A stretch of DNA of 8,238 nt from a virus. Its lineage: Duplodnaviria > Heunggongvirae > Uroviricota > Caudoviricetes. This document shows, in pieces, positions 1-7,285 of the stretch (position 1 is the stretch's first letter; each line of letters begins with the position of its first letter). The DNA lies in the IMG/VR virus record IMGVR_UViG_2548876694_000021. The stretch is one strand, 5' to 3'. The position numbers and the translations under genes are program-made. The notes beneath the pieces were generated by a model that saw only the letters and a list, made by a program, of their open reading frames with translations, made no database searches and was not told the origin of the DNA.

Positions 1-30
1 GGGCGATTAACATCGCCTTTTGCTGCTTCA
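1..30 (-). CDS. hok: Hok/Gef-family type I toxin, 5' end only (first 10 codons MKQQKAMLIA; gene runs off the left edge)
   Basis: ATG at 30..28 on the minus strand, preceded by AAGGAG (reverse complement of 41-46). The peptide start MKQQKAML matches my recollection of Hok/RelF-type toxins. Only 30 nt are visible, so this is family-level only. Confidence 0.4.
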
Positions 31-250
31 TAGCCTGCTTCTCCTTGCCTTTCGGCACGTAAGAGGCTAACCTAGATTTGCCGTTCATAGATTGAGCCTC
101 AGATTAATGTTAAGCGTCTTGCAGGACGCGTAATGTTAACTGGGGCTTTTCTCTATCTGCCGTTGGTGTTCATGCCCGAGGCAGATAGCCTCAAGCACCC
201 GCAGCTATTCTACTTAACTTCCCATTACCTCGCCAATATGAAATCGGTCA
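31..250 (-). promoter_or_regulatory. Putative hok mRNA leader (mok-like upstream start codon at 89..87; expected target region of a Sok-type antisense RNA)
   Basis: Minus-strand sequence upstream of the hok-like ATG reads ...AGCCTCTTAC...GCAAGGAGAAG...ATG, resembling hok leaders as I recall them from plasmid R1. An upstream ATG (89..87) sits in mok-like position. Extent and the antisense RNA are not resolved. Confidence 0.3.
153..188. repeat. 9-bp perfect inverted repeat (CTATCTGCC ... GGCAGATAG) with an 18-nt loop
   Basis: Read directly: 153-161 is the reverse complement of 180-188. It lies within the putative hok leader and could be one of the mRNA folding elements. Confidence 0.6.
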
Positions 251-635
251 GAAAGACAGACGTCCCATAAGGACAACAACGGAAAAAGAGATTTTGCTTG
301 ATGCTATTTACCTCTGCACCATGAAGTTGCGCCAAAATCCCAGTGGTGATAACAGGAATTTGGTTGTTGGTGATTGGGGAAAGAAGTACGTTAGACTGTG
401 GGTTAGTTCATTGACATGATAGTTACCTGCCTTCAATTTCCTAAGCAAGCGATGTAAACGATAATCAATATCAAATGTATTGACAGGTAAAATAATAACG
501 ATGTACCTTTGCTGATAACATATATCAGTCTTAAATCATAATGGAGGTAGATAAAATAACTAAACACACACAACAAATTTTTTATCAGTGACATAGCATA
601 TCTTAAGCATCCTTTAATGCTCATGGGGAGAACGC

Positions 636-1409
636 ATGACTAAACATATGGACATTCATTGTCAAACACGCATATTTAACTCAATTAACCATGACACCAA
701 ATATAAAATATGTATTTTTACTCCAAAAAACATTAAAAAAAATAATGCAACTCTTTATATACTTGATGGGAATAGTGCCAACAATTACATTTCTGATATT
801 CTGCCTGTTATTGATGCACTACCCAATCCACCAGTGTTAGTTACACTTGGTTATGAATCTTGGAATAACCTTAGCATTCATCGCCGTGCTTACGATTATA
901 CTCCTGATGGTGAAAATGCTATTGTTGATAACTCTAAACCAGCATGGATCTACTTTACTGGTGGAGGAAGCCAGTCTTTCCGAGAATTATTACTAACTCA
1001 GATCATGCCATGGGTTAGTACTATTGCTCCGAACAGTTCCAGAATCGGTATATGTGGGCACTCGCTAGGTGCTATTTTTGTGCTTGATTGCTTAAAAAAT
1101 AATTCATGCTTTAACTATTATTATATATCTGCACCATCACTTCTATGGCAGAATGAAAGAATCATCAAGATAATTAAAGATGATATATCAGAATCAAAGC
1201 ACACTAAAAGTATATGCTTGCTTAACGGAAATCTTAGCCTTGATTACTCCGCATCTTTATATCCTGAAGCCATCAAAGCGGAATCTGTTTTGAGAAATAT
1301 TTTGACAGAAAAATACAGTAATTTTTCTATTGTACAATTTCCAGAGCTCAATCATCAGGAGACTTTCTCTGCTGCACTCTGGAATAGCATTATTCATTTC
1401 AGCATATAA
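636..1409 (+). CDS. Esterase-family alpha/beta hydrolase (Fes/IroE/esterase-D-like fold, GHSLG nucleophile motif); AT-rich cargo gene
   Basis: 257-codon ORF with GGGGAG 5 nt upstream of the ATG. Contains ...LYILDGNSA... and ...IGICGHSLGAIFVLD... (a GxSxG serine-hydrolase motif), typical of the putative-esterase family. No signal peptide is evident. Composition is strongly AT-rich, unlike the phage genes to the right. Confidence 0.75.
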   Translation: MTKHMDIHCQTRIFNSINHDTKYKICIFTPKNIKKNNATLYILDGNSANNYISDILPVIDALPNPPVLVTLGYESWNNLSIHRRAYDYTPDGENAIVDNSKPAWIYFTGGGSQSFRELLLTQIMPWVSTIAPNSSRIGICGHSLGAIFVLDCLKNNSCFNYYYISAPSLLWQNERIIKIIKDDISESKHTKSICLLNGNLSLDYSASLYPEAIKAESVLRNILTEKYSNFSIVQFPELNHQETFSAALWNSIIHFSI

Positions 1410-1760
1410 CAGAAAATATGTAATCACTTTATCAATCTAGCTAACATAACTGATATCAATCCTAATGGGTCTTTGAACATATTAAAAGATAACTTCTCAT
1501 TTGTACATTGTTGTGTTCTTAGACCCATTTCAAAAATACTATTTTTTAGATACTAATAATTACATCCATTTAGCTATCTTCTAAATACTCCTCTCAGTTT
1601 CTTCATTGGAGCTGATTCAACTCCGGCAATGCATACTAGGATCATTTTATAAGCATACAAACAACATCCAGACTGTGAATTATTGCTATTCATTTTCTAT
1701 GTATCTGCTCTTTTCCCATCCACTGAAACACCAGAATCCAAAGGTTTCATGTTATTTTCA

Positions 1761-2174
1761 CTATTCCATCATTACTCCTGTGTAAAATATCAAAACTCGC
1801 TGCATCACTTCACTGTTACGGCACTCACTACAAATTATGTTCAATTGCCTGTCATAGCGGCGTATTTCTCCGTCTGGTAATGACCAGATAAGGTCAGGAT
1901 CAACCACAACCGGTTTCTTCAGTTTTGCCCTCGATAGTTTTTTGCGGGCGTTTTGCCAGTCCTTACGAGCCTGTTCAGATGGGAATAACCCGTAACCAGA
2001 GTTGTATACATCGCCACTGGCAACCAGCTCTCTGGCAAGAACGCTCATCAGATATCTTGTCGCACCTGTCTTGGCTTCCAGTTGCCGTAACGTCTCGCGC
2101 CCACTCCGGCGTACTAGCTCAACAACCTGCCCTTTAATTTTTTCCCGCTCTTCCTGTGTAAATACTTTTGCCAT
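1761..2174 (-). CDS. Hypothetical phage protein (137 aa), last gene of the leftward early operon
   Basis: The ORF track starts at a TTG (2189); the ATG at 2174 (MAKVFTQEE...) has GGAG 6 nt upstream and is the more likely start. Basic, helical-looking protein with no recognised domain. Its 3' end lies in AT-rich DNA. Confidence 0.55.
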   Translation of the reverse strand: MAKVFTQEEREKIKGQVVELVRRSGRETLRQLEAKTGATRYLMSVLARELVASGDVYNSGYGLFPSEQARKDWQNARKKLSRAKLKKPVVVDPDLIWSLPDGEIRRYDRQLNIICSECRNSEVMQRVLIFYTGVMME

Positions 2175-2985: not shown

Positions 2986-3726
2986 TCACATACCCTGACG
3001 TCCAACGTTTGACCGCCAGCTATCCCAGTTAAACGTCACCCATCGACCACCGTTCATGGTCATGCGGTCCATAATCCTCTCACCAAGAAGTGTACTCATT
3101 GCGGCATGATTCAGGTTTGTTAACATCCCGACACTGCACAGTGATGCTGTCCGGCGATCAATTATCTGGTGTAATACCACCTGCTCGTTTTTCGTCTCCC
3201 GCTGAACGCCTATTTCATCCAGGACCAGCAAATCAACACTGCAAAGCTCCTGTAAAAATTTTTCCCCGGATTTGCCGTTGTCGTAGCTGTCATGCAACAC
3301 GCTCATGACATCAGACACGGTGACGATAATCACGCTGCGCCCCTTCGCCATCAGCCGGTTACCCATCGCCGCTGCAAGGTGATTTTTCCCGGTGCCGGTT
3401 TTACCGCTGAACACAAAATTCGTGCACCCGGTCATCAGTTCGTCAGCTATGGATTTGGCCTGGCTCAGCGCGTATTTTTGCCCGTCGTTCTGCACCTGAT
3501 AATTCGCAAACGAGCATTTGCTGTGCAGAGGCTGGATGCCCGAACGATTCAGGATTTTTTCCACCCGCAACTGGTGATTCTGGCGGTTAATCTCCTCGCT
3601 GCGTTTTCGTCCTTCAGCAAGTTGCCATTCCCGCCACTCCTCCACCGTCCGGTACGGTGGAACCGACGCCTGTGGTGCAAGTCTGCGAATACGTTCAAGA
3701 ACCCCGGCTGCCGCAATGTTTTTCAT
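2986..3726 (-). CDS. DnaC-like AAA+ helicase loader (IstB-like ATPase)
   Basis: Walker A (FVFSGKTGTGKNHLAAAMG) and Walker B (DLLVLDEIG) motifs. The start ATG overlaps the stop of the upstream initiator gene (ATGA at 3723-3726), indicating translational coupling. Confidence 0.88.
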   Translation of the reverse strand: MKNIAAAGVLERIRRLAPQASVPPYRTVEEWREWQLAEGRKRSEEINRQNHQLRVEKILNRSGIQPLHSKCSFANYQVQNDGQKYALSQAKSIADELMTGCTNFVFSGKTGTGKNHLAAAMGNRLMAKGRSVIIVTVSDVMSVLHDSYDNGKSGEKFLQELCSVDLLVLDEIGVQRETKNEQVVLHQIIDRRTASLCSVGMLTNLNHAAMSTLLGERIMDRMTMNGGRWVTFNWDSWRSNVGRQGM

Positions 3727-4847
3727 GCCACATCACCCCTGAATCCCGGCGGAATTTCGGTATCCGGTTCAGAAATATGATTCACACAACGCTGGTTGTT
3801 CGTGCCGCTTACCGGGAGCAACCAGGGGTTTTCAAAATTCCGGTCCGGCCCAAAAAACGTCGTCGCTCGCTGAACAAATTCCGTTCCCGCTTTCCCGGTC
3901 GCCGCCAGGTATCTCGCGTAACGCCTCACACCATCCAGCATGGTCTCTGGTGGCACCCCCTCGCGCAATCTGGCCTTCCAGGCACTGAAAGCGGATTTCT
4001 TCGGGTTTGCCCCAGCACGCAACGGGTATTCCCGCCAGACCTGTTCGAACACATCCGGATAATCCACTCGTCCCACAGACTGCCCGGTGCTTTCCGGGAC
4101 TACCCGATCGGCTTCCCGCTGAATGGCGGAATCGGCTTCAGGCTGCTGCAGTTGGTGTGATTGCTCCGACCCTGCGGTCATCACCTGCTGCACAGCGCCC
4201 GAATCGGCTTTCAGCGCATACGCTGAATCGGCTTCCGGTGTCGTGCCTGCTGGCTGACCAGGATTGACGGTCTGAACATCCCCTGCCTGGTTCGTGGTGT
4301 TTTTTTTGCCATGAACCATAGTGTTTTTGTCCTGTTCCTGTTCTTTCTCCTGCTCCTGTTCCTGTTCTTGGCTTCGAAGCCCCTTAAAAGCCCCTTCGAA
4401 GCCCCTTACCGAATTTCGGCTATTATTCCGCCTCACATCCAGATGGAAATCCGTTTTATATCTGTCGTAAAACACTGACAGAAAAGCGTTTTCAGGTAAT
4501 GATGCATACTCATTCCTGACACCTGCACAACGGTTATCGCCAGGCTTCAACGTTTCCCCAACCTGCCAGGCTGCCATTTCATGGACCCAGACCATCTCTG
4601 CATCATGGTCATAGCTACAAAAACCAGCTTCAACAGCCCTTTTAAGCCCCTTTGAAGCCCCTTCCAGACCAAGCCCGGTTTCATGAGCAAGGTATAAAAC
4701 TGGCAGGTAATACAAACCCAGCATATTTGCGTGAGGGGATGTCATCAGGTAAAAAGCAACAACTTGCGCTTCTGCACCCGCCTTTCTAAGTTCTCTCCCC
4801 GTTTCTCCCAGCCAGAATCGCGGAGAAACTTTTGCGTAATCACGCAT
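3723..4847 (-). CDS. Phage replication initiator / replisome organiser with a DnaT-like C-terminal domain
   Basis: The ORF extends to 4958, but the ATG at 4847 (MRDYAKVSPRFWLGE...) has GAGGTAG upstream and is the likelier start. The C-terminus ...VNHISEPDTEIPPGFRG resembles the C-terminus of primosomal protein DnaT as I recall it. There is a central QEQEQEQEKEQEQ linker. Iteron-like repeats lie inside the gene. Confidence 0.8.
   Translation of the reverse strand: MRDYAKVSPRFWLGETGRELRKAGAEAQVVAFYLMTSPHANMLGLYYLPVLYLAHETGLGLEGASKGLKRAVEAGFCSYDHDAEMVWVHEMAAWQVGETLKPGDNRCAGVRNEYASLPENAFLSVFYDRYKTDFHLDVRRNNSRNSVRGFEGAFKGLRSQEQEQEQEKEQEQDKNTMVHGKKNTTNQAGDVQTVNPGQPAGTTPEADSAYALKADSGAVQQVMTAGSEQSHQLQQPEADSAIQREADRVVPESTGQSVGRVDYPDVFEQVWREYPLRAGANPKKSAFSAWKARLREGVPPETMLDGVRRYARYLAATGKAGTEFVQRATTFFGPDRNFENPWLLPVSGTNNQRCVNHISEPDTEIPPGFRGDVA
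4331..4366. repeat. Imperfect hexanucleotide tandem repeat (CCTGTT)n, encoding the Q/E-repeat linker of the initiator
   Basis: Read directly: cctgttcctgttctttctcctgctcctgttcctgtt. On the coding strand it gives QEQEQEQEKEQEQ. Confidence 0.7.
4375..4407. repeat. Iteron-like direct repeats, cluster A: three copies of AAGCCCCTT at about 11-12 bp spacing
   Basis: Copies at 4376-4384, 4387-4395 and 4399-4407. The spacing is close to one helical turn. They lie inside the initiator gene next to the linker. Confidence 0.5.
4635..4680. repeat. Iteron-like direct repeats, cluster B: two exact AAGCCCCTT copies plus flanking degenerate copies
   Basis: Exact copies at 4644-4652 and 4655-4663 (11 bp apart). 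Degenerate copies at 4635-4643 (agccctttt) and 4671-4680 (aagcccggtt). Confidence 0.45.
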
Positions 4848-4925
4848 GGCTACCTCATCTGGTGCCGAACCTTCCTCCGGATATAATCTGTGGTTCCCAA
4901 TCGACAGAACCAGAGGAGGTTCGAC

Positions 4926-5381
4926 ATGTATTTTTTGAAAAGCCTTTATCAGGCTCATGTATTAAATGTTGCAGCAACAAACCGCTGGTGTAACAGCCCC
5001 GAAATGCTCCCGGATTACAGAGCCTGGCTGCGCGCCGAAACATACCTTCGTCTCGACATATTGATTAGCGAACTTCAAAAAGAGACTGCATCCATTCATA
5101 ACCTTCAGGGTATCGATGCTGTTCGCATTCTGGTATCGCGCCATAGTGCTCTCTCAATAATTGAAGTGCGTCATCTCTCTTTTTCTGAACTGATTTTCTT
5201 GCTTCAACCAGCTCTGGAATCAGCGAATATCCCACCGGAAGTGATCCAATACCCACCTCATGTTGACGAGCAGTTACAAGATGTGCCATACAACCAGCGT
5301 GCTGGATTGACTCCCTGCTCAGAGGCTGAATGGGATCACTCTCTGCTGAAGAAATACCAAGATTTGTATAATCCTCAATAA
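4926..5381 (+). CDS. Hypothetical protein (151 aa), antisense to the early operon; mutually exclusive with the minus-strand ORF 5065-5574
   Basis: AGGAGG at 4913-4918 sits 7 nt upstream of the ATG at 4926, inside an otherwise non-coding 217-nt gap of the minus-strand operon. Seven of the eight Arg codons I decoded by hand are CGT/CGC. No recognised domain. Confidence 0.42.
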   Translation: MYFLKSLYQAHVLNVAATNRWCNSPEMLPDYRAWLRAETYLRLDILISELQKETASIHNLQGIDAVRILVSRHSALSIIEVRHLSFSELIFLLQPALESANIPPEVIQYPPHVDEQLQDVPYNQRAGLTPCSEAEWDHSLLKKYQDLYNPQ

Positions 5382-5587: not shown

Positions 5588-6013
5588 TTAATGCACAGCC
5601 AGAGTGTTTCCTGCCGGGCCACCACGATTCATCTGATCGAACAGAACGATCGCTGATGCAACGAAATCATCAATATCTTTCACCAGCCGTTCCTTCGTCT
5701 CTACCAACTCCCGAAAATAAGCGGAACTGTGGCTGCGCATTCGGGCCACCAGCGGAGGCGGCATCGCTTTTTCGATCGCTGGTAACAACGCCTGAATTTT
5801 TTTAACCGCATCAGGAGTGTCTTTCTCCACCCAGCGGAAAATTTTCTGAGTATTGCGAGCCATGGCTTCCGGATGGCTGTCGTCATACAGTTCCGGGAAC
5901 GTCATTCCCAGCTCGAAATACGCTTTGGTAATTTTCGCAGCCGGTACTTTTTCGCCGTCCGGATGCGCCCAGGCATTCATCGCCATGCGGATGTGTTCAT
6001 GCTTGATTTTCAT
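5588..6013 (-). CDS. YdaT-like protein (Rac-prophage YdaT family; proposed CII-type regulator)
   Basis: 141 aa starting MKIKHEHI and ending ...TLAVH, matching my recollection of YdaT-family proteins. GGAG lies 8 nt upstream. Its start overlaps the end of the Cro-like gene by 17 nt. Confidence 0.7.
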   Translation of the reverse strand: MKIKHEHIRMAMNAWAHPDGEKVPAAKITKAYFELGMTFPELYDDSHPEAMARNTQKIFRWVEKDTPDAVKKIQALLPAIEKAMPPPLVARMRSHSSAYFRELVETKERLVKDIDDFVASAIVLFDQMNRGGPAGNTLAVH

Positions 6014-6269
6014 GAATCAACTCCGGCGCATTTGATGTGTTAACCTTACATCCAACAGGTAAACCGTCGGTTGGGTTAGGATAAATATCTGGGCGGATTT
6101 CATGCGGGGTAACTTCCCACTTCATTAGTTGGCATAACGGAATTACCTGCTTTGGGGGAACGCCAAAGCTAAACCATTGCCAAACAGTCTGTTGAGCGAC
6201 CCCCATATAACGACCTATTTCAGCCTGAGTGTATTTCTGCCTAATTTTTTCGCGAGTGCTATCTAGCAT
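5997..6269 (-). CDS. Cro/YdaS-like HTH DNA-binding protein (first gene of the leftward early operon)
   Basis: GAGGAGG SD upstream of the ATG at 6269. HTH segment QAEIGRYMGVAQQTVWQW and a ...TPHEIRPDIYPNPTDGLP... motif typical of YdaS-like Cro proteins. It is divergent from the repressor gene. Confidence 0.8.
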   Translation of the reverse strand: MLDSTREKIRQKYTQAEIGRYMGVAQQTVWQWFSFGVPPKQVIPLCQLMKWEVTPHEIRPDIYPNPTDGLPVGCKVNTSNAPELIHENQA

Positions 6270-6297
6270 TTTGCCCTCCTCTAAAAACTATAAGCAA

Positions 6298-6341
6298 AGC
6301 CTACAATAAAAAACTGTATGCAATCAACAGTTTTTTATTGT
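6298..6341 (-). promoter_or_regulatory. OR-like operator (15-bp inverted-repeat arms, 9-bp spacer) overlapping a leftward PR-like promoter
   Basis: ACAATAAAAAACTGT (6303-6317) and ACAGTTTTTTATTGT (6327-6341) are perfect reverse complements. On the minus strand a TTGATT -35-like hexamer (6327..6322) and a TAGGCT -10-like hexamer (6303..6298) sit upstream of the cro-like gene. Confidence 0.6.
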
Positions 6342-6377
6342 GGTGCTTTTAACAGTATTTACCTGTAAAATTGAATA

Positions 6378-6779
6378 ATGATGAGCGCCCTAGAAGTATC
6401 TATGTACAGAATCAGCAAGCTTCTTCAGGAAACTGGATGGAGCCAGGCTGAGCTTGCCCGTAGAATTGGTGTGACACAACAAACTGTTCAACAATGGGTC
6501 AGCGGTAAGGCTACACCTAAAGCCTCAAGTTTGGATAAACTGGTTGAGGTTTCAGGGCATCCATTGCATTGGTTTTTATTGCCTCCTGAAGAGTGTGAGC
6601 AAATTTTCACCCCTGACACGATGAAAATTGGTCCTCGCCAACGCGAACTGCTCCAAGCTTTTAGTGCGTTTCCTGAGGAAGACCAAGAAAAAATGCTTCA
6701 AGAAATCAAAGACAAGAAAAAATCAATGGAAGAAACCATTGCTAGGTGGCTGGCGGCACAAAAAAGCCGCCGGGCGTGA
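6378..6779 (+). CDS. Prophage repressor, XRE/DicA-type HTH; PaaR-like first gene of a three-gene repressor-antitoxin-toxin operon
   Basis: HTH segment SQAELARRIGVTQQTVQQWVSGK. No LexA-type S24 peptidase domain. The C-terminal part (GPRQRELLQAFSAFPEEDQEKM) resembles DicA/RacR-type repressors as I recall them. It is divergent from the cro-like gene. Confidence 0.85.
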   Translation: MMSALEVSMYRISKLLQETGWSQAELARRIGVTQQTVQQWVSGKATPKASSLDKLVEVSGHPLHWFLLPPEECEQIFTPDTMKIGPRQRELLQAFSAFPEEDQEKMLQEIKDKKKSMEETIARWLAAQKSRRA

Positions 6780-6806: not shown

Positions 6807-6998
6807 ATGGGTACAGCCCTTTCTCCGATAGTTTCAGAATTCGAAACTACCGAACAAGAAAACAGTTACAACGAATGGTTGCGCACTAAAGTAACGTCAA
6901 GCCTTGCAGACACTCGCCCCGCAATTCCACATGACGAGGTAATGGCTGAAATGGAAAATCTTATTGCTCAAATTGCTGTAACTAACAAGAGCGAGTAA
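6807..6998 (+). CDS. paaA: Type II antitoxin partner of ParE (PaaA-like, 63 aa)
   Basis: GAGGAG lies 7 nt upstream of the ATG. Small acidic protein (…SEFETTEQENSYNEWLRTKV…HDEVMAEMENLIAQI). Its stop overlaps the toxin start (TAATG at 6996-7000). It resembles PaaA2 of E. coli O157 prophages as I recall it. Confidence 0.72.
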   Translation: MGTALSPIVSEFETTEQENSYNEWLRTKVTSSLADTRPAIPHDEVMAEMENLIAQIAVTNKSE

Positions 6999-7285
6999 TG
7001 TTACCCATTTTATGGCTACCGTCTGCTCGCGATGATTTGCGCCAGATCATAACTTACATCGCCAAGGAGAACCCACCGGCAGCACGTAGACTAAAAATAC
7101 GCATTGAAACATCGGTATTACCTCTATCTGAGCATCCGTACTTATATCCACCAAGCGAACGGGTTTCTGGATTGAGAGAGATCGTGACCCACCCTAACTA
7201 CATAATCCTGTACAGAGTAGCTGCTTCAAGCATTGAGATTGTAAGCGTGACACATTCTCGGCGACAATTTCCCTTCTCTATCTGA
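6998..7285 (+). CDS. parE: ParE/RelE-superfamily type II toxin (ParE-like, 95 aa)
   Basis: The MLPILWLPSARDDLRQI...EHPYLYPPSERVSGLREIVTHPNYIILYRVAASSIEIVSVTHSRRQF pattern is characteristic of ParE toxins. It is translationally coupled to the antitoxin gene. Confidence 0.85.
   Translation: MLPILWLPSARDDLRQIITYIAKENPPAARRLKIRIETSVLPLSEHPYLYPPSERVSGLREIVTHPNYIILYRVAASSIEIVSVTHSRRQFPFSI

Follow-up and report, generated by a model that had tools for sequence, protein, structure and literature searches.

The DNA analysed here is a stretch of 8,238 nucleotides (nt) from a virus of the class Caudoviricetes (IMG/VR record IMGVR_UViG_2548876694_000021), referred to below as the window. At positions 636-1409 on its plus strand it carries a gene for a 257-residue serine esterase of the IroE family that lacks the N-terminal leader of its relatives, an assignment drawn from the open reading frame (ORF), homology, fold and the ratio of non-synonymous to synonymous substitution rates (dN/dS). 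We give about even chances to the proposal that the lysogen transcribes the gene from its own promoter and that the product, an IroE-type serine esterase located in the cytoplasm, hydrolyzes the ester backbone of a catecholate siderophore; control by Fur is possible. We read the gene as a moron in the slot of variable content that separates the replication/DUF977 genes from the hok/sok-nin-Q region in a lambda-like prophage (Sp4 type) of Shiga toxin-producing Escherichia coli (STEC). The protein adds a divergent member, leaderless and phage-borne, to a known enzyme family and does not represent a new kind of system.

Comparisons with solved structures place the protein among the IroE-like siderophore esterases, alpha/beta hydrolases of the PF00756 clan (A85-IroE-IroD-Fes-Yiel in ESTHER). 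In a phmmer search against PDB sequences the best match is IroE (2GZR; E 2.8e-24, covering residues 8-253 of 257), followed by BesA (E 2e-12), PfeE (E 8e-10) and the fungal siderophore esterases EstA/EstB, and all of the significant matches are siderophore esterases. The AlphaFold2 model was built on a 30-sequence alignment (A1) and has a predicted local distance difference test (pLDDT) score of 79 and a predicted template modelling (pTM) score of 0.84. When the model was compared with the PDB by Foldseek, ranks 1-30 were taken by PfeE, IroE, EstA/EstB, BesA and an IroE-like Shewanella protein (E 6e-17 to 8e-14; template modelling (TM) scores 0.7-0.8); Fes (~4e-10), then esterase D and the feruloyl esterases, came after rank 30. 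An earlier reading of the sequence without database searches (the sequence-only reading) had guessed an alpha/beta hydrolase of the Fes, IroE or esterase D type, and this guess is borne out, with IroE the best match by sequence and siderophore esterases filling the top 30 folds. Sequence and model alike point to the IroE-like subfamily and not the Fes-like one, because there is no N-terminal lid domain.

Profile searches are less informative. Pfam PF00756, the profile suggested by the sequence-only reading, does match the protein, but at 15.2 bits it stays under the gathering score of 22, and no NCBIfam profile matches at E <= 1. Since the protein has diverged beyond the reach of such profiles, its place in the family is taken from comparisons of sequence and fold with PDB entries. 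An exhaustive HMMER search through 1.84 billion cluster representatives returned only fragments of the same E. coli cluster at more than 50% identity; the next best relatives are IroE-type proteins at about 30% identity (E 1e-25 and weaker). Judged by these matches, the lineage is isolated within its family. One relative, P0020 of the enterobacterial IroE group, is encoded next to entE/B/A-like genes and two TonB-dependent receptors.

The two motifs picked out by the sequence-only reading, GHSLG and LDG, are present as G141-H142-S143-L144-G145 and L43-D44-G45-N46 and fall on invariant columns of the family. D44, R84, D87, G141, H142, S143 and G145 are invariant throughout A1 and are kept in every allele of the gene. 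In the phmmer alignment S143 pairs with residue 149 of the 2GZR chain, which is Ser189 of IroE (chain index + 40), and H240, likewise kept in all alleles, pairs with chain residue 247, which is IroE His287. Larsen et al. 2006 reportedly assigned the oxyanion hole of IroE to Arg130, anchored by Asp90. R84 and D44 lie at a common offset of 46 from IroE R130 and D90, which is consistent with the IroE numbering and reflects sequence conservation only. We propose S143 and H240 as the catalytic residues and R84 and D44 as the oxyanion pair. Catalysis would then proceed as in IroE, a lidless alpha/beta hydrolase described as working through an atypical Ser189-His287 dyad (PMC10515146, PMC2661963, PMC7034887): His240 would activate Ser143 at the GHSLG elbow without a carboxylate partner, and Arg84, held in place by Asp44, would stabilize the oxyanion.

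The complete Ser-His-Asp triad anticipated by the sequence-only reading is not to be expected. The canonical acid position is occupied by Asn or Ser (residue 197), and the position of the PfeE and BesA glutamate by Ser201. That glutamate stands three residues after the conserved Gly following strand beta7, in RGSAE of PfeE, where it is part of the proposed triad S157/E217/H258 (PMC11852561), and in VGSLE of BesA; it is missing both from IroE (EGSAT) and from the window protein (NGNLS, S201). EstB, like PfeE and BesA, is a siderophore esterase of the triad type. The conserved 'MEG' glutamate of the IroE clade is Asn197 in the window protein and Ser in the other alleles. Nearby, residue 199 is N, D or E depending on the allele, D203 is conserved, and the loop is modelled with low confidence (pLDDT ~59). 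By these residues the enzyme appears to be of the dyad type or to use a non-canonical acid, a caveat that does not refute the assignment.

The N-terminus sets the protein apart from its relatives. All 26 IroE-clade sequences in A1 have some 55 additional N-terminal residues, a hydrophobic stretch followed by a PLGPNIADKGS motif, that are absent from the window protein and its alleles, which begin just before the first beta-strand of the fold. The ATG at 636 is preceded by a Shine-Dalgarno sequence (GGGGAG, 625-630 (+), 5 nt before the start codon and invariant across alleles) and by an in-frame TAA at 615-617, 21 nt upstream of the ATG. A tblastn search of window positions 1-900 with four IroE N-termini gave only noise (E > 0.5). 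The possibility that annotation had truncated the N-terminus was rejected on the strength of the in-frame stop and the absence of any such remnant. The N-terminus is not hydrophobic (maximum Kyte-Doolittle 15-residue mean of -0.07 over the first 40 residues), in keeping with the cytoplasmic location claimed from the sequence. Having neither a signal peptide nor a membrane anchor, the window protein should act in the cytoplasm, and we predict it to be cytoplasmic and not periplasmic. Its site of action would be that of BesA and Fes, which are cytoplasmic esterases hydrolyzing ferrisiderophores (PMC8891985), unlike that of IroE and PfeE, which are periplasmic (PMC11852561).

The gene is present at 19 loci in IMG/VR, in three intact allele groups at ~100%, 92.5% and 90.5% DNA identity together with one frameshifted copy. 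Pairwise Nei-Gojobori dN/dS among the three groups, which reside in prophages with different replication modules, is 0.17-0.25. The window allele differs from the diverged alleles by 58-74 substitutions, and the other two groups differ from each other by ~36-39. Against one diverged allele (L022), 42.5 synonymous and 31.5 non-synonymous differences were counted, giving a synonymous rate (dS) of 0.32 and a non-synonymous rate (dN) of 0.054. Such ratios indicate a functional protein under purifying selection.

Conservation extends upstream of the coding sequence, into a putative promoter and 5' untranslated region at 383-635 (+). Compared with the 90% allele it is 87% identical over its whole length and 90% identical at 500-635, which equals the level of the coding sequence and exceeds the 75-77% of the downstream spacer, and the blocks 462-485, 496-528 and 531-556 are invariant across five alleles. 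A Fur-box-like 19-mer, GTAAACGATAATCAATATC, lies at 454-472 (+), just upstream of a perfect TTGACA at 480-485. It agrees with GATAATGATAATCATTATC at 15 of 19 positions (14 of 19 in the 90% alleles, by manual count on the alignment) and fits the Fur consensus better than any other site in the 8.2-kb window (P = 0.0035 against 2000 dinucleotide-shuffled versions of 383-635). Scored as a 15-mer in 7-1-7 form, 459-473 agrees at 12 of 14 positions (P = 0.012). A perfect palindrome, CTGATA-N5-TATCAG, can be read at 512-528 (+), and its positions 513-527 score 11 of 14 against the Fur 7-1-7 core. The promoter scan predicts a sigma-70-like promoter that overlaps this palindrome, with -35 ATAACA at 515-520 and -10 CATAAT at 537-542 (+), and the whole stretch 512-542 is invariant in all five alleles. 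As consensus matches in AT-rich DNA, these candidate Fur sites are suggestive only.

A long sense-strand hairpin (1464-1529 (+), -23.2 kcal/mol) begins 55 nt past the stop codon. It is more stable than expected on the plus strand (z = -3.9, versus z = -1.6 on the minus strand), and the 90% allele folds in the same way (-28 kcal/mol, z = -4.9) despite a 12-nt insertion that lengthens the stem, the window allele being the shorter form. Covariation analysis found no compensatory changes, just two G-U/A-U switches, so the structure rests on thermodynamics and conservation. The run of U residues begins ~12 nt past the stem, which departs from the textbook form of an intrinsic terminator. The hairpin probably forms the 3' end of the moron transcript or terminates it, a role in RNA stability being another candidate. 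The orientation of the gene, opposite to the phage early operon, had been read correctly from the sequence: 636-1409 (+) is antisense to the minus-strand operon. A promoter-like region, a single gene and a 3' hairpin placed antisense within an early operon make up what reads as a classic moron anatomy.

In the scheme that we favor, the gene would be transcribed in the lysogen, probably from its own conserved promoter and possibly under Fur control, with transcription probably ending at the downstream hairpin. The most likely substrate would be the ester backbone of a catecholate lactone siderophore built on dihydroxybenzoyl (DHB)-serine or threonine, such as enterobactin or an imported relative, and the likely outcome would be iron release or siderophore turnover in the lysogen. 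Several observations weigh against this scheme. Substrate specificity cannot be read from an identity of ~30% to the nearest relatives, and PF00756 and NCBIfam give the weak and empty results described above. No gene for siderophore synthesis or transport adjoins the esterase gene, whose neighbors are hok/sok, DUF977, DUF1627 and DnaC-like genes. Since E. coli O157 already has the cytoplasmic esterase Fes, the function would be redundant unless the specificity differs. With the 'MEG' glutamate replaced by Asn or Ser and Ser201 at the position of the triad Glu, activity could be low or altered. The Fur-like matches lie in AT-rich DNA and have P values of ~0.004-0.012, and the stronger of the sites is upstream of the -35 element, which is not the usual position for repression. 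Finally, the sole pseudogenized copy among the 19 (L026, IMGVR_UViG_2695420643_000015, positions 6001-6770) is 97% identical and carries a frameshift that leads to 7 in-frame stops, so that one lineage at least can do without the gene.

A more specific version of the favored scheme would make the gene one of lysogenic conversion for iron: a cytoplasmic esterase, delivered by the phage and controlled by Fur, that alters the handling of catecholate siderophores in STEC lysogens. We hold this version to be rather unlikely as it stands. Its possible roles include iron release independent of Fes, use of foreign trilactone siderophores and linearization of enterobactin before export. If it were true, carriage of an Sp4-type prophage would alter iron acquisition in the gut.

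The strongest competitor keeps the enzyme and changes the substrate. An active esterase of the IroE fold could act on something other than a siderophore, with a benefit to the lysogen unrelated to iron; candidates are other cytoplasmic esters, lactones or depsipeptides, for example a metabolite, a toxin or antibiotic, or an acylated sugar. We regard this as a genuine possibility, if on balance not a probable one. The identity to every characterized siderophore esterase is no higher than ~30%, the gene stands without siderophore neighbors, and residues typical of the clade are changed (GYQT to GYES, WGHSYGG to CGHSLGA, MEG to LNG, HG to HQ). The PF00756 fold also includes esterase D and the feruloyl esterases, although these come lower among the fold matches, and it is siderophore esterases that supply the 30 best folds and all significant PDB sequence matches. 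The protein's closest relatives in nature are IroE proteins, one of them in a catecholate siderophore locus, and Fur-like sites precede the gene; these points, too, favor a siderophore substrate. Were the substrate not a siderophore, the protein would still represent an isolated lineage of its family, ~30% identical to anything among the 1.84 billion representatives.

Comparison with characterized enzymes shows which features are shared and which are not. IroE, the salmochelin/enterobactin esterase of the iroA locus in E. coli CFT073 and Salmonella (2GZR/2GZS), is 26% identical to the window protein in structural alignment (TM 0.78-0.83). Both consist of a single alpha/beta-hydrolase domain without a lid, both conserve the dyad positions, the Asp of LDGN and the Arg of RAYDYTP, and in neither is the third residue past the conserved Gly a Glu, as it is in PfeE and BesA. 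The window protein differs from IroE in having neither the ~55-residue anchor or signal nor PLGPNIADKGS, in the Asn or Ser that replaces the 'MEG' Glu, and in being encoded outside an iroBCDEN cluster; it is ~70% diverged and prophage-borne, and its gene has a G+C content at third codon positions (GC3) of 0.28. BesA, the bacillibactin esterase of Bacillus (2QM0), has the same fold (Foldseek E 3e-15) and an identical GHSLG elbow and is likewise leaderless, and by analogy it is the closest counterpart for the way in which the window protein may work. It differs in that the window protein has Ser where BesA has the acid of G-S-L-E, the identity is ~20%, and BesA belongs to a siderophore regulon whereas this gene is a lone moron. 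PfeE, the ferric-enterobactin esterase of Pseudomonas aeruginosa (6GI0-6GI5), is the top Foldseek match (E 6e-17), with its GHSxG motif and C-terminal His aligned to those of the window protein. It is encoded beside the pfeA receptor gene. Unlike the window protein, PfeE resides in the periplasm, and the triad proposed for it is Ser/Glu217/His258 (PMC11852561). Fes/IroD, the cytoplasmic esterases for enterobactin and salmochelin, would share the predicted compartment and the general reaction, and the catalytic domain is related (Foldseek E ~4e-10). Fes, however, carries an extra lid domain at its N-terminus and uses a Ser-His-Glu triad (PMC10515146); the 257-residue window protein has no room for such a lid, and the Fes match covers the C-terminal domain only (target-normalized TM 0.46-0.47).

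The gene lies in an island of low G+C content. Positions 401-1800 of the window have a G+C content of 0.29-0.35 in 300-nt windows, against 0.47-0.62 across the replication genes, and the drop in composition noted at about 400-1900 is therefore real. The esterase gene itself has a G+C content of 0.344 and a GC3 of 0.279, compared with 0.48-0.53 and 0.48-0.61 in four adjacent genes. The right edge had been placed too far out, as 1761-1900 is the 3' end of the DUF977 gene. Among the ORFs of the island only the esterase gene is preserved across alleles, which agrees with its having been called the only convincing gene, without an obvious partner. A 63-residue ORF at 433-624 (-) and ORFs of 59 and 65 residues downstream were considered as partners and rejected, since they are not preserved. 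The AT-rich spacer between the esterase gene and conserved phage sequence (1410-1794) evolves at about the neutral rate apart from the hairpin, with 75-77% identity and insertions or deletions among alleles, against a dS of 0.32 in the gene; no ORF downstream of the gene is preserved across alleles, and the description of 1410-1760 as long AT-rich non-coding DNA holds. An Rfam search gave a single match in the window, to sok at 26-200, and none in the island.

Island-free prophages define the boundaries of the slot, a comparison that the sequence-only reading had called for. It is variable from ~220 to 1794: homology with one island-free relative (L006, from E. coli strain 1436) stops on the left at position 219, a second (L007, phage vB_EcoS-683R6, ON470595.1) has no left-side sequence in common with the window, and in both of them homology resumes on the right at 1795. 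Diverged island variants (84-86% DNA identity) share 383-2396 or more with the window; they have a different replication module, of the lambda-P/DnaT type, yet the island is in the same slot. Five of the variants (L003 and L022-L025) match the window from 1 or 40 to 248 and again from 383. Between the hok/sok module and the island, the left junction or scar (220-382) varies among island variants and holds a pseudogene scrap at 291-374 (-), annotated by PGAP as an incomplete hypothetical protein, an N-terminal scrap between sok and the island (L001 11992-12075). Positions 249-382 are replaced by other sequence in the 90% island variants, and the segment resembles a scar left by recombination. 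No repeats other than short chance ones flank the island, which thus looks like a recombinational module swap, with no sign of transposition or site-specific insertion. From its boundaries, its variants and the alternative contents of the slot, the island is a cargo module of ~1.4 kb (383-1795) that is exchanged by recombination at a hotspot, and not a core phage gene. Of the outcomes that the sequence-only reading had named as refuting it (another fold, an incomplete triad, a core gene conserved at this position in related phages), none came about outright.

What the slot holds in other genomes raises the question of phage defense. In vB_EcoS-683R6 it holds a complete IetAS defense system (ON470595.1, 359-3752; PADLOC IetS E 1e-298, IetA E 9e-143), whose genes are labelled in that record merely 'S8 family peptidase' and 'cell division protein FtsH'. 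Rac/Sp4-like lambdoid phages accordingly have a hotspot for cargo and defense genes downstream of DUF977/LygF, and the island illustrates moron anatomy cleanly, in a slot occupied elsewhere by a defense system. The esterase might then be an anti-phage or exclusion gene that protects the lysogen directly or through a surface property linked to a siderophore receptor, which would fit the IetAS genes in the same slot after the DUF977/LygF (Ren-like) gene, the naming of the adjoining family in PHROGs as 'Ren-like exclusion protein', and the character of the gene as a lone, foreign, lysogen-oriented moron. We think this improbable. None of the 5027 models of PADLOC-DB 2.0 matches the esterase, the 63-residue ORF or the DUF977 protein at E <= 1; the protein folds like a small-molecule esterase and has no nuclease, nucleoside triphosphatase, sensor or membrane effector as a partner, and the island has no second gene. 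Eight small genes of unknown function fill the slot in E. coli strain 1436, and location alone is weak evidence.

It is very improbable that the gene is a decaying or catalytically dead iroE-like relic that lost its 5' end on capture by a phage and hitch-hikes with successful STEC prophages: the missing N-terminal anchor and PLGPNIADKGS motif, the lost family Glu, the one frameshifted copy and the more than 99% identity of most copies, as recent spread would give, are outweighed by a dN/dS of 0.17-0.25 over 58-74 substitutions, by the retention of all catalytic residues and of an intact frame in 18 of 19 IMG/VR loci, by the conserved ribosome-binding site and promoter region, and by the extent of the 2gzr construct, which starts just 11 residues before the alignment does, so that the missing segment is largely outside the solved catalytic domain.

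In O157:H7 the esterase gene lies in the prophage adjoining yccA, and in strain Sakai it is ECs1077 of prophage Sp4, annotated as 'hypothetical protein'. RefSeq labels it 'alpha/beta hydrolase' (WP_000160654 type), and PHROGs assigns it to phrog_8493, 'unknown function'. Sp4 also bears PchA, SodC, EspK and TccP (PMC2323221). ECs1077-type genes thus sit on a prophage with virulence cargo under labels that say no more than hypothetical or alpha/beta hydrolase, and placement on the IroE branch turns an anonymous ORF into a testable hypothesis that, in a major pathogen, prophage content bears on iron metabolism. The gene resembles the morons of enterohaemorrhagic E. coli prophages (stx; sodC and pchA on Sp4; NanS-p), which are likewise single foreign genes with their own expression signals and absent from related phages; in fold and chemistry it differs from the SASA/NanS-p esterases.

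A 1.7-kb segment containing the gene is found at >=99% identity in 457 complete E. coli genomes, and at >=80% coverage in 471 of 5426 (~9%). Some 2080 further genomes, of 2549 that match the query, do so only at its DUF977 end, and the contrast between 471 genomes with the gene and 2549 matching the region bears out its description as accessory cargo. The carriers seen belong to STEC lineages such as O157:H7, O121 and O111. No deposited phage genome carries the gene, the four weak protein matches being either iroE in mis-filed bacterial contigs or distant, and no close relative was found beyond E. coli among GTDB species representatives. The searchable literature holds no mention of ECs1077, WP_000160654 or NP_309104, and no prophage-borne siderophore esterase was found there.

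The remainder of the window is part of a lambda-like prophage whose minus-strand genes were identified by Pfam and PHROGs. They encode a DnaD/O-like replication protein (3723-4958), a DnaC-like loader (2986-3726), a DUF1627 protein (2190-2960) and the DUF977 'Ren-like/LygF' protein (1761-2189). To the left of the island, positions 1-250 hold a hok/sok type I toxin-antitoxin module, with sok at 26-200 (-) (Rfam, 107 bits) and the end of the hokD coding sequence at ~31. A 45-residue ORF at 133-270 (+), ECs1079 in Sakai, overlaps the hok leader in antisense and is probably not a gene.

Further features of the prophage lie away from the island. The longest ORF of the O-like gene encodes 411 residues, against 363 in the RefSeq call; at ~4300-4370 (-) the gene has a low-complexity acidic run, QEQEQEQEKEQEQDK, coincident with a strong excursion in AT skew, which could mark a linker or the origin region of the replication initiator gene. 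Between the O-like and YdaT-like genes a 163-residue ORF at 4890-5381 (+), the RefSeq 'ECs1072 family phage-associated protein', runs antisense to the early operon and may be a second small moron. A type II toxin-antitoxin pair at 6807-7285 (+), made up of a RelB-type antitoxin (63 residues) and a RelE/ParE-type toxin (95 residues), lies inside the immunity region directly downstream of a helix-turn-helix repressor-like gene (6378-6779). In the late region of the same prophage, downstream of tRNA genes, a 616-residue carbohydrate esterase of the SASA family is encoded at L001 4413-6263 (-), a second and unrelated prophage-borne esterase located 6 kb from the ECs1077-type gene.

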